Positions 35,764-37,107 of a stretch of DNA of 64,000 bases are shown piece by piece (positions within the stretch are counted from its first letter, which is position 1; each line of letters opens with the position of its first letter). The stretch lies in sequence record PV874203.1. One strand, written 5' to 3'. The position numbers were made by a program, and so were the translations under genes. Below the pieces are notes generated by a model that was not told the DNA's origin, searched no databases, and saw only the letters and a program-made list of their open reading frames with translations. The stretch comes from a phage.

Positions 35764-37107
35764 TTAACGAATGTTTTGTGAATTTAACAGATGGTCTAAT
35801 TCCCCACCAACCTGAGGCTCTAATACTTCAGGGTTGTTGTCAACAAATCTATCAGCGAGATTGCGGCTGACGGTCTCAGCTAACTCACCATGAGAAGGGA
35901 TATCAAGATCACCGACAGTGGGACTCTGAGCAGATGCTTCATCAGTCCATATAACACGAGCAGCTTGGTCAATACCACCAACAGCAAAACCCTGACCAGA
36001 GAACTGGTGACGGCTAGCAGTCAAACCATTTGACAGACCACTAGAACGTCTAGACAACCACCGATCAAACGAATCGCTGGTAACACCAAGAGCCTCTTCA
36101 AAAGATGTTCTACGAGTAGGGCTTTCTCTTCGTGCCTCTTGTGCTCGACGTCTTGCAGGTACTGCAAACAAACCTTCAATAGCATTGTGTCGGTTAGGTT
36201 CTTCTTCCCGACCAAGCAGATCACCACCCGTATTGGTTGTTAAGTCTGTCAACCCTTCAGACCAATACGCATGAACCCGATCAGAGCCGTTAAGACTCGA
36301 CATTAACTGAATCTCTTCATAAGGTATACCAAAGAATCGACTCATATCTCGGTCAACACAATACTGAGCACTTGTTGTATCCTCAATAAGAGCAACCTGA
36401 CCCCGTTCGTTGACCAGATGACTGATCGGTTGAGGTGTAGGAAGGTATCGAGTTTGGGCCATGTATTGATGTGCAACTGCTGGAGATGAAAATCTCAATA
36501 CCTGAGAATTAGGCCATTTCTTGTGAACATATCTGATTTCACGACTAGAAACAACAACAGGGCAAGGGGCGGTCATCGCCAAATATCCATGAGAAGTCAT
36601 GAATAGGTTGTCAAGAGTCATCGCACCACGGCACATCATAGGGAAATTATCCATGACTTCTTCAATAGAAGTAGGATAGTTAAACATGAATTGGATTCGG
36701 GTTCCATTCCACTGAAACTCAATAATATCAGTGAATGTTAGTCGAGAATTACCAGCATAGGGTTCGTCTGTAGCTTCAGCAAGAAGAGATGCATGCTCAA
36801 TACCTTGTGACTCAAGCCACTCTTTCACATTGCTCTCAATCTCACGCCCAAGATCTTGCCACTGTTCGTGACGGATGAAAGTGTTTTGTGTTCTTGGTGT
36901 TTGCCCTCTGACGATAAAGATATCAATGTCATGAGGTGCTATGTTATTAAGAACAGCATCACGAACAGCCCCACCAGTAATGATGGGACAGATACCGTCT
37001 GGAACCAAGTTGTTGTTAATCAACTGTTCAATGAAATGACGACCAACAGTGATATCGGGTTGTTGAGCAACCTTATCTTCAATTTGGTTAATCGGGATAA
37101 CAATCAT
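35764..37107 (-). CDS. nucleotidyltransferase with CCA-adding / poly(A) polymerase-type head domain, long C-terminal extension
   Basis: ICPIITGGAVRDAVLNNIAPHDIDIFIV matches the GGAVRD + DxD head motif of class II tRNA nucleotidyltransferases; start set at the ATG right after the exo-domain stop. Confidence 0.6.
   Translation of the reverse strand: MIVIPINQIEDKVAQQPDITVGRHFIEQLINNNLVPDGICPIITGGAVRDAVLNNIAPHDIDIFIVRGQTPRTQNTFIRHEQWQDLGREIESNVKEWLESQGIEHASLLAEATDEPYAGNSRLTFTDIIEFQWNGTRIQFMFNYPTSIEEVMDNFPMMCRGAMTLDNLFMTSHGYLAMTAPCPVVVSSREIRYVHKKWPNSQVLRFSSPAVAHQYMAQTRYLPTPQPISHLVNERGQVALIEDTTSAQYCVDRDMSRFFGIPYEEIQLMSSLNGSDRVHAYWSEGLTDLTTNTGGDLLGREEEPNRHNAIEGLFAVPARRRAQEARRESPTRRTSFEEALGVTSDSFDRWLSRRSSGLSNGLTASRHQFSGQGFAVGGIDQAARVIWTDEASAQSPTVGDLDIPSHGELAETVSRNLADRFVDNNPEVLEPQVGGELDHLLNSQNIR

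Follow-up and report, generated by a model that had tools for sequence, protein, structure and literature searches.

What would a phage do with a protein that carries the signature of tRNA CCA-adding enzymes near one end and a long unstructured extension at the other? Such a protein is encoded at 35764..37107, on the minus strand, of the 64,000-nucleotide phage sequence PV874203.1 (this whole stretch is hereafter called the window), and was described in an initial annotation, made from the sequence alone, as a CCA-adding-enzyme-like nucleotidyltransferase (NTase). We find that the protein has a class II-type head, yet is outside the family that CCA-adding enzymes form together with poly(A) polymerases (PAP), as defined, because the class II elements beyond motif A are missing. 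It is one more ortholog of the annotated, experimentally uncharacterised gp73 family of phage phiEco32, which is present in more than 70 sequenced coliphages. By profile comparison, this family is a phage-only clade that has the PHROG 1614 NTases as its sister group and the anti-Gabija protein Gad2 as a more distant relative. Beyond the existing annotation, the present analysis adds the finding that, of the class II features examined, the protein shows only motif A and the head fold, as well as the placement of the family beside the PHROG 1614 NTases and Gad2.

A core gene of phiEco32-like phages

The window is the genome of a Kuravirus (phiEco32-like phages, Gordonclarkvirinae), and the gene in question is:

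35764..37107, minus strand: NTase coding sequence of 447 codons with a TAA stop; its orthologs include phiEco32 gp73 and phage Paul gp076 'nucleotidyltransferase'

The open reading frame (ORF) called initially is real: the minus-strand frame is uninterrupted, ends at 35764 and, read from the ATG at 37107, yields a protein of 447 amino acids. A possible alternative GTG start is located upstream, at 37164, but the ATG is the true start because MI(V/K)IP is the beginning of all homologs and because the exonuclease gene that lies upstream has its stop at 37109. At the DNA level, the gene is 91.8% identical to that of Escherichia phage Paul and 85-89% identical to those of ~70 other phages of E. 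coli and Shigella, and at least 80% of it is common to 70 phage records. The protein, which is 92.6% identical to the "nucleotidyltransferase" of Paul, matches the PHROG 12715 profile over residues 1-433 (E 1.5e-234), and this full-length match, together with the position of the gene between those for the PolA exonuclease subunit and dCTP deaminase, identifies it as a member of the gp73 family. The initial annotation overlooked that this is a long-annotated core gene: phiEco32 gp73 itself (ABY52874) is labelled 'hypothetical' in GenBank and 'nucleotidyltransferase' in RefSeq, and the latter label is also attached to the PHROG 12715 orthologs in Kuravirus, Nieuwekanaalvirus and Suseptimavirus.

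Orthology within this family extends over the full length, with 77-93% identity within Kuravirus and 30-37% identity between genera in the N-terminal domain, and is accompanied by identical synteny and by the same arrangement of an NTase domain followed by a disordered tail. There is no essential difference between the window protein and these orthologs, although it shares with Paul and a few others an alternative version of the last ~15 residues. In Kuravirus, the length of the proteins varies between 392 and 456 amino acids due to the tail, and in phage XT32 the gene is split into two ORFs.

The folded domain and its active site

The features of the folded part of the protein are the following:

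36250..37107, minus strand: folded NTase domain, residues 1-286, delineated with AlphaFold2
36910..36981, minus strand: motif A, residues 43-66, ITGGAVRDAVLNNIAPHDIDIFIV, with the helix-turn GG, R49/D50 and the predicted catalytic D60-x-D62
36727..36729, minus strand: D127, candidate third catalytic carboxylate, in strand 124-133; Asp or Glu in 30/30 representatives
36625..36645, minus strand: FPMMCRG, residues 155-161, equivalent to RRDLTIN in motif B of class II and to FDxxIC in the small phage NTases and Gad2
36511..36543, minus strand: REIRYVHKKWP, residues 189-199, family signature [RTK][DE]xxYxx[KR]K in 30/30 members, with Y193 and K197 invariant

In the AlphaFold2 model, built with a 46-sequence alignment, residues 1-286 are predicted with confidence (predicted local distance difference test, pLDDT, mostly ~85-94), and all of residues 287-447 score below 50. 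Hence the initial statement that the ~350 residues beyond the signature lack recognisable domains is incorrect: the fold spans residues 1-286, and disorder is confined to the last ~160 residues. Residues 1-~215 comprise a core that is common to the whole family, whereas residues 215-286 are conserved within Gordonclarkvirinae only.

The GGAVRD/DxD signature that had been noticed within the N-terminal 80 residues is indeed present, at residues 43-66. The class II motif A pattern, GGxVRD(x)nDxD, is represented by GGAVRDAVLNNIAPHDID (residues 45-62), and the same pattern was found in 29 of the 30 representatives, chosen to span the whole gp73 family, on which all our conservation counts are based. 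Thirteen positions (G45, G46, R49, D50, D60, D62, F64, Y117, I128, Q139, P156, Y193 and K197) are invariant in all 30 representatives, and three more (99, 127 and 190) are always acidic. The catalytic carboxylates, the absence of which would have spoken against an NTase, are thus apparently in place, and D60, D62 and D127 look like the carboxylate triad of Pol-beta-type NTases because the first two are invariant and the third is always acidic across the representatives. The elements that define the Pol-beta-like NTase superfamily, namely, the helix-turn hG[GS], a DxD pair in the strand that follows and a third carboxylate in an adjacent strand, are all recognisable. Elsewhere in the domain, the Asp of motif B is replaced by the invariant Pro156, and the REIRYVHKKWP segment aligns with LRVQKYTDKEY of Gad2.

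The ratio of nonsynonymous to synonymous substitution rates (dN/dS) of the N-terminal domain is 0.10-0.13, and, judging from the sequences, the gp73 family evolves like an active enzyme. This pattern bears on the possibility that the NTase fold is catalytically inert and serves the replisome only as a structural component or adaptor, the function residing in the tail. Such a scaffold would be compatible with the probable translational coupling of the gene to that of the exonuclease subunit and with the resemblance of the tail motifs and terminal aromatic residues to the tails of replisome proteins (both described below). However, the GG doublet, R49, D50, D60 and D62 are invariant, and position 127 is acidic, over ~70% sequence divergence; because this invariance is combined with the low dN/dS, the pattern is that of an active enzyme, and we consider an inert scaffold highly improbable.

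Comparison with class II CCA-adding enzymes, poly(A) polymerases and other nucleotidyltransferases

Sequence comparisons with the class II enzymes consistently stop at motif A. The Pfam family PF01743 (PolyA_pol) matches the window protein with 19.0 bits (E 0.0018), under the gathering cut-off of 23, and the orthologs score between 13.5 and 21.9 bits. The profile of the gp73 family recovers motif A alone in class II sequences from the PDB (E ~0.6), other single-sequence and profile searches of PDB sequences returned motif A only or nothing, and hhalign comparison yielded motif A only with E. coli Cca and no credible match with PcnB. Under the definitions of motif B, motif D and the PAP signature given previously (PMC2910056), motif B (DxxRRD) occurs in none of the 30 family members, motif D ([ED]DxxR) in two that do not include the window protein, and the PAP I signature [LIV][LIV]G[RK][RK]Fx[LIV]h[HQL][LIV], located between motif A and the loop, again in none. 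Of the elements of the class II tRNA NTases and PAP I, motif B, motif D, the PAP signature and the flexible-loop/BxA context are thus undetectable in the window protein, and the helical neck, body and tail domains of these enzymes, which bind tRNA or RNA, have no counterpart in the AlphaFold2 model.

At the level of structure, the head-domain fold of class II is present. A Foldseek search of the PDB retrieved class II enzymes at E ~1e-5, and in structure comparison, the nearest solved folds are CCA-adding enzymes, which score above TENT5 (8.0), CdnE (7.3), Pol beta (7.0) and MenT1 (6.6). The description of the protein as CCA-adding-enzyme-like therefore stands as far as motif A and the head fold are concerned, whereas membership in the CCA-adding/PAP family does not, given the Pfam score below the cut-off and the missing motifs B and D. 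Assignment to a different NTase family, which had been named as the outcome that would overturn the initial annotation, did not emerge either: no profile matches to antibiotic NTases (ANT/KNT), cGAS/DncV-like NTases (CD-NTases) or MenT/AbiEii were found, and no profile assigns the protein to one of these groups. The acidic isoelectric point (pI) of the core was considered as an argument against RNA binding and dropped, the head and neck of E. coli Cca being equally acidic.

These results are pertinent to a PAP-like activity, that is, untemplated tailing of host (or phage) RNAs that would lead to 3' exonucleolytic decay, supplying ribonucleotides for dNTP synthesis, or would tune transcript stability. 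The gene is located among genes for nucleotide metabolism (dCTP deaminase and ThyX, as well as NrdD in relatives), and the basic Arg/Ser patch of the tail could bind RNA. Against this stand the lack of the PAP I signature in all 30 family members and the absence of the PAP RNA-binding C-terminal domain, and we regard RNA tailing as unlikely.

A phage-only clade beside PHROG 1614 nucleotidyltransferases and, more remotely, Gad2

When the profile of the N-terminal domain was run exhaustively with HMMER against 1.84 billion cluster representatives, only 47 proteins were detected at E <1e-3, of which ~27 belong to the gp73 family proper (274-482 amino acids) and the rest are phage NTases of ~200 amino acids. 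All homologs with a recorded source come from phages, phage-like contigs or metagenomes. In hhalign comparisons, the gp73 family aligns with the small phage NTases over 134 columns (probability 99.5%, E 4e-22), and the small NTases, in turn, align with Gad2 (probability 96.9%, E 2e-10) and with residues 1-203 of E. coli Cca (probability 88.5%, E 3e-6), with FDxxIC placed opposite RRDLTIN of motif B. The direct match between the gp73 family and Gad2 is marginal (E 7.6e-5 over 41 columns and 1.8e-4 over 133 colinear columns, probability 48-62%).

The small NTases belong to PHROG 1614, which is likewise uncharacterised and includes the following proteins:

PHROG 1614 examples: Ralstonia phage BOESR1 gp25, Dickeya phage Luksen 'tRNA nucleotidyltransferase', phi92 gene 158 and Aeromonas phage phiAS7 H6UK10

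These proteins share with the gp73 family a homologous core (TM 0.56 with BFVD models) and colinear motifs, AGGAVRD, DxDIF, a strand with an invariant Gln, and F[D/P]xxC. They differ in that the motif B Asp (FD) is retained, along with an RGxxFSERY helix resembling that of class II, and in that the long disordered tail is lacking, whereas the invariant Pro156, the extra segment 215-286 and the tail are found in the gp73 family only.

The closest experimentally studied phage relative, which the initial annotation missed, is Gad2, a 400-amino-acid anti-Gabija protein of Bacillus phage SPbetaL7 (10.1101/2023.05.01.538930). Knockout of Gad2 renders SPbetaL7 sensitive to Gabija, and the protein is a predicted NTase that is toxic when expressed (10.1101/2023.05.01.538930). 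In the marginal direct alignment, this predicted phage NTase and the gp73 family are colinear through all core motifs, namely, GG, DxD, the Gln strand, FDxxC/FPxxC and a helix with R..K/Y..K; the stronger link between the two is transitive, via PHROG 1614. Many Kuravirus orthologs also carry the precomputed Pfam label 'PF26128: Gad2 (weak)'. There are also differences: motif A of Gad2 (SPbetaL7 ORF_159; PF26128) has ITS in place of VRD, its folded C-terminal domain of ~240 amino acids is unrelated to the disordered tail of the gp73 family, and the gene for Gad2 is an accessory one at a variable locus, in contrast to the fixed core gene for the gp73-family NTase. BLASTP comparison of the window protein with the Gad2 sequences (SPbetaL7 and B. 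laterosporus, from the supplement of preprint 10.1101/2023.05.01.538930) showed no similarity outside motif A and no match to the Gad2 C-terminal domain (~160-400); the window protein did not match the PHROG families of Gad2 (18122 and 27100), and tblastn searches toward the annotated Gad2 phages returned nothing useful. Scans with NCBIfam, which has no Gad2 model, and PADLOC produced no matches.

The question of tRNA repair

The initial annotation proposed that the enzyme might repair or modify tRNA 3' ends, and pointed to a tRNA gene in the window, which is confirmed here on the minus strand:

53399..53474, minus strand: tRNA-Arg(UCU), the single phage tRNA, with the genomic end ...GGGTGCACCA

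The 3' CCA of this tRNA is encoded in the genome, so that no CCA addition is required for its maturation. More generally, repair or CCA addition could be directed at host or phage tRNAs damaged by a host defence system that targets tRNA. Motif A, which is the class II signature, and the CCA-adding enzymes as nearest solved folds are compatible with this activity. Furthermore, NTases that modify tRNA can be toxic when over-expressed, and over-expression of SPbetaL7 Gad2 or the Emajogi NTase is toxic too, which would be in keeping with an RNA target. The small relatives are also often labelled 'tRNA nucleotidyltransferase' (PMC7693777). On the other side, motifs B and D, which select the ribose and the C and A bases (PMC2910056), are absent or effectively so; the protein lacks the neck, body and tail for binding tRNA; and its PF01743 score is below the threshold. 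In addition, the phage tRNA already carries its CCA, E. coli possesses its own Cca, and no RNA ligase, polynucleotide kinase or kinase-phosphatase that could act as a repair partner is annotated in related genomes. Taken together, the missing motifs and domains, the encoded CCA and the lack of annotated partners leave the proposal of tRNA 3'-end repair unsupported, and we assign it a low probability.

The disordered tail

The C-terminal part of the protein comprises the following features:

35767..36249, minus strand: intrinsically disordered C-terminal tail, residues 287-447 (pLDDT <50), fast-evolving and indel-rich, with conserved short motifs
35998..36180, minus strand: basic patch of the tail, rich in Arg and Ser, residues 310-370, pI 11.6

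Between genera, the tails diverge beyond recognition and differ by many indels. Nearly half of the tail (48%) consists of S, T, G, N, Q, P and R. The Arg/Ser/Gly-rich tract with which the protein was initially said to end does exist, but lies in the middle of the tail (~310-370) rather than at its end; the tail overall is net acidic (-8) and ends with ...GGELDHLLNSQNIR. With a dN/dS of 0.25-0.46, compared to 0.10-0.13 in the N-terminal domain, the tail is genuinely coding and under purifying selection. The last residue is aromatic in 18 of the 30 family tails, against 11 expected, a modest enrichment in a count that ignores kinship. Aromatic-ended tails recall those of SSB, T7 gp2.5 and T7 gp4.

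Two alternative extreme C-termini exist among the Kuravirus NTases at 35767..35811 on the minus strand (as compared with the orthologs in loci L001, L002, L005 and L014): ...PQVGGELDHLLNSQNIR in the window, Paul and a few others, and ...PQTRTVRFADEAGRGISF[DE]I[ED]xNN in most Kuravirus.

Genomic neighbourhood and expression

Three genes for replication and nucleotide metabolism are relevant to the context of the NTase:

37109..37663, minus strand: family-A DNA polymerase 3'-5' exonuclease subunit, upstream gene, 184 amino acids
35218..35751, minus strand: dCTP deaminase, the invariant downstream neighbour
26866..28587, minus strand: family-A polymerase subunit, a separate gene

The gene order was compared among Kuravirus, Nieuwekanaalvirus, Suseptimavirus and distant metagenomic relatives (30% identity), and the same succession was found: GGACT, a small ORF, primase/helicase, the PolA 3'-5' exonuclease subunit, the NTase, dCTP deaminase and, further on, Dps-like, thioredoxin and ThyX genes. 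The NTase is thus fixed inside a T7-like replication module, just after the exonuclease subunit of the polymerase. Translational coupling to this subunit is likely because the exonuclease stop precedes the ATG of the NTase by 1 nt in the window, and in distant relatives the stop and the NTase start share 4 nt. The PHROG 1614 NTases often have neighbours of this kind: in T7-like phages of Ralstonia and Dickeya (L016 3923..4453; L017 3920..4471), they are found directly beside primase/helicase and DNA polymerase genes.

The family-A polymerase of the window is split, with the 184-amino-acid exonuclease subunit and the polymerase subunit more than 8 kb apart and ~20 genes between them. The possibility that the NTase is the missing catalytic subunit of this split polymerase is ruled out because the polymerase subunit has a gene of its own, at 26866..28587 on the minus strand, ~7 kb downstream of the NTase.

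In phiEco32, gene 79, which is upstream on the same strand, is a middle gene, and the genes for the polymerase and for nucleotide metabolism belong to the middle cluster (PMC8948821); its position places gene 73 among the middle genes as well, whereas the SU10 paper lists it among the early products. A potential promoter was noticed upstream of the NTase:

37120..37149, minus strand: sigma70-like TTGACC-18-TATATT, 10/12 matches, within the 3'-terminal part of the exonuclease gene and 13 nt upstream of the ATG of the NTase

At the matching place in phage SU7, a 'promoter' is annotated. We rejected this site as a promoter of the NTase itself: such sites are as numerous as expected by chance, and the coding sequence that overlaps the site accounts for its conservation. 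Its function is unproven because the conserved -35 part is, at the same time, the coding sequence for the conserved GFDP of the exonuclease protein. No phiEco32 sigma-type TAATGTATA motif was found near the NTase start, and an Rfam scan of 34500..38500 yielded nothing credible.

The BASEL paper reports this NTase beside dCTP deaminase, and Gordonclarkvirinae show unusual resistance to the defence systems that were tested (PMC11990801). A further possibility is DNA modification or a replication-linked activity on DNA ends: in conjunction with dCTP deaminase, the NTase would introduce a covalent change into phage DNA that accounts for the resistance of these phages to restriction-modification (RM), as suggested previously (PMC11990801). 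The place of the NTase beside dCTP deaminase and replisome genes is invariant, and the loss of the motif B Asp (P156), which reads the ribose 2'-OH, could permit the use of deoxynucleoside triphosphates (dNTPs). However, ThyX and a dNMP kinase are encoded as well, and ordinary dTTP supply fully explains the dCTP deaminase. Moreover, we know of no DNA base-modification pathway that employs a class II-type NTase.

Site counts in the window are relevant to the unexplained RM resistance of Gordonclarkvirinae. Compared with the expectations from second-order Markov simulations, several short palindromes are strongly avoided over the whole window (1..64000): CCWGG occurs 4 times against 94 expected, GATC 150 against 297, PstI 0 against 18, KpnI 0 against 12, BamHI 1 against 11, and EcoRI 5 against 21. 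By contrast, EcoRV (23 versus 20) and EcoKI (8 versus 7.5) sites are not depleted, so that site avoidance alone cannot explain the reported resistance, which is in line with DNA modification; the strong avoidance of many other sites would be an alternative route of evasion. On balance, we consider DNA modification by this enzyme quite improbable.

Two additional loci in the window deserve mention. An ORF for a 164-amino-acid HNH_3 homing endonuclease (33721..34215, minus strand; Pfam E 7e-9) is inserted between a 108-amino-acid ORF and the Dps/ferritin-like gene (33165..33728), and is absent at this place in Paul and phiEco32. A cluster of GGACT, ATP-grasp-like, glutamine amidotransferase, amidoligase and COOH-NH2 ligase genes occupies 39667..49049 on the minus strand and is known from phiEco32.

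A tentative model of function

The explanation that we tentatively favour is a composite one, in which a two-part protein acts as an NTase on nucleic-acid 3' ends, is recruited through its tail, and has a protective, Gad2-like role. This explanation builds on the features identified here, namely, the fold of the NTase and the conservation of its active-site residues, the clade to which it belongs, its fixed place in the replication module, and the disorder and constraint of the tail. Residues 1-286 are predicted to form a catalytically competent NTase of the Pol-beta superfamily built on a stripped-down class II head. In the proposed mechanism, D60, D62 and D127, together with two metal ions, would transfer a nucleotide from a nucleoside triphosphate (or a dNTP) to a nucleic-acid 3'-OH without a template. 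Through the disordered tail, the enzyme would be drawn to a partner or a substrate where the phage replicates, and there it might shield replicating phage nucleic acid from nuclease-type host immunity, in a manner similar to Gad2, rather than perform housekeeping CCA addition.

Several considerations weigh against this composite explanation. The link to Gad2 is remote and involves the NTase core only, given that the C-terminal domain of Gad2 is absent from the gp73 proteins and Gad2 itself lacks VRD. In the model of the active site, D60, D62 and D127 are placed by sequence conservation only, and the C-terminus of the window protein itself has no terminal aromatic motif. The acceptor substrate cannot be deduced from sequence and, to our knowledge, RNA rather than DNA is the target of every class II enzyme that has been characterised. 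The strictly conserved, syntenic position as a middle gene is more typical of core replication or metabolism than of an accessory anti-defence gene. Finally, the mechanism and substrate of Gad2 were still unknown in February 2026 (PMC12904381), so that the statement that the enzyme works like Gad2 holds little mechanistic content.

In a bolder version, which we consider improbable, a replisome-tethered, class II-derived NTase has switched from RNA to DNA (or RNA primers) and nucleotidylates the ends or replication intermediates of the phage genome, which would explain the defence resistance of Gordonclarkvirinae and reveal the mechanism of Gad2-type proteins. The probability that is left after the composite and the four rival explanations, that is, tRNA repair, RNA tailing, DNA modification and the inert scaffold, goes to something else.

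Implications

One more ortholog of a protein encoded in more than 70 coliphages is not a discovery in itself. The significance of the gp73 family stems from its place in the strictly conserved core of a phage subfamily that stands out for its exceptional resistance to the defences of bacteria, from an active site that, by sequence, appears intact, and from its membership in the same phage-only NTase radiation as Gad2. It also illustrates the extent to which a head domain of the CCA-adding type can be reduced and fitted with a disordered tail. The importance of the enzyme would be greater only if its acceptor proves to be DNA or if it explains the defence resistance of these phages. Once determined, the acceptor substrate would probably inform the study of the widespread small NTases of T7-like, phi92-like and ICP1 phages as well.

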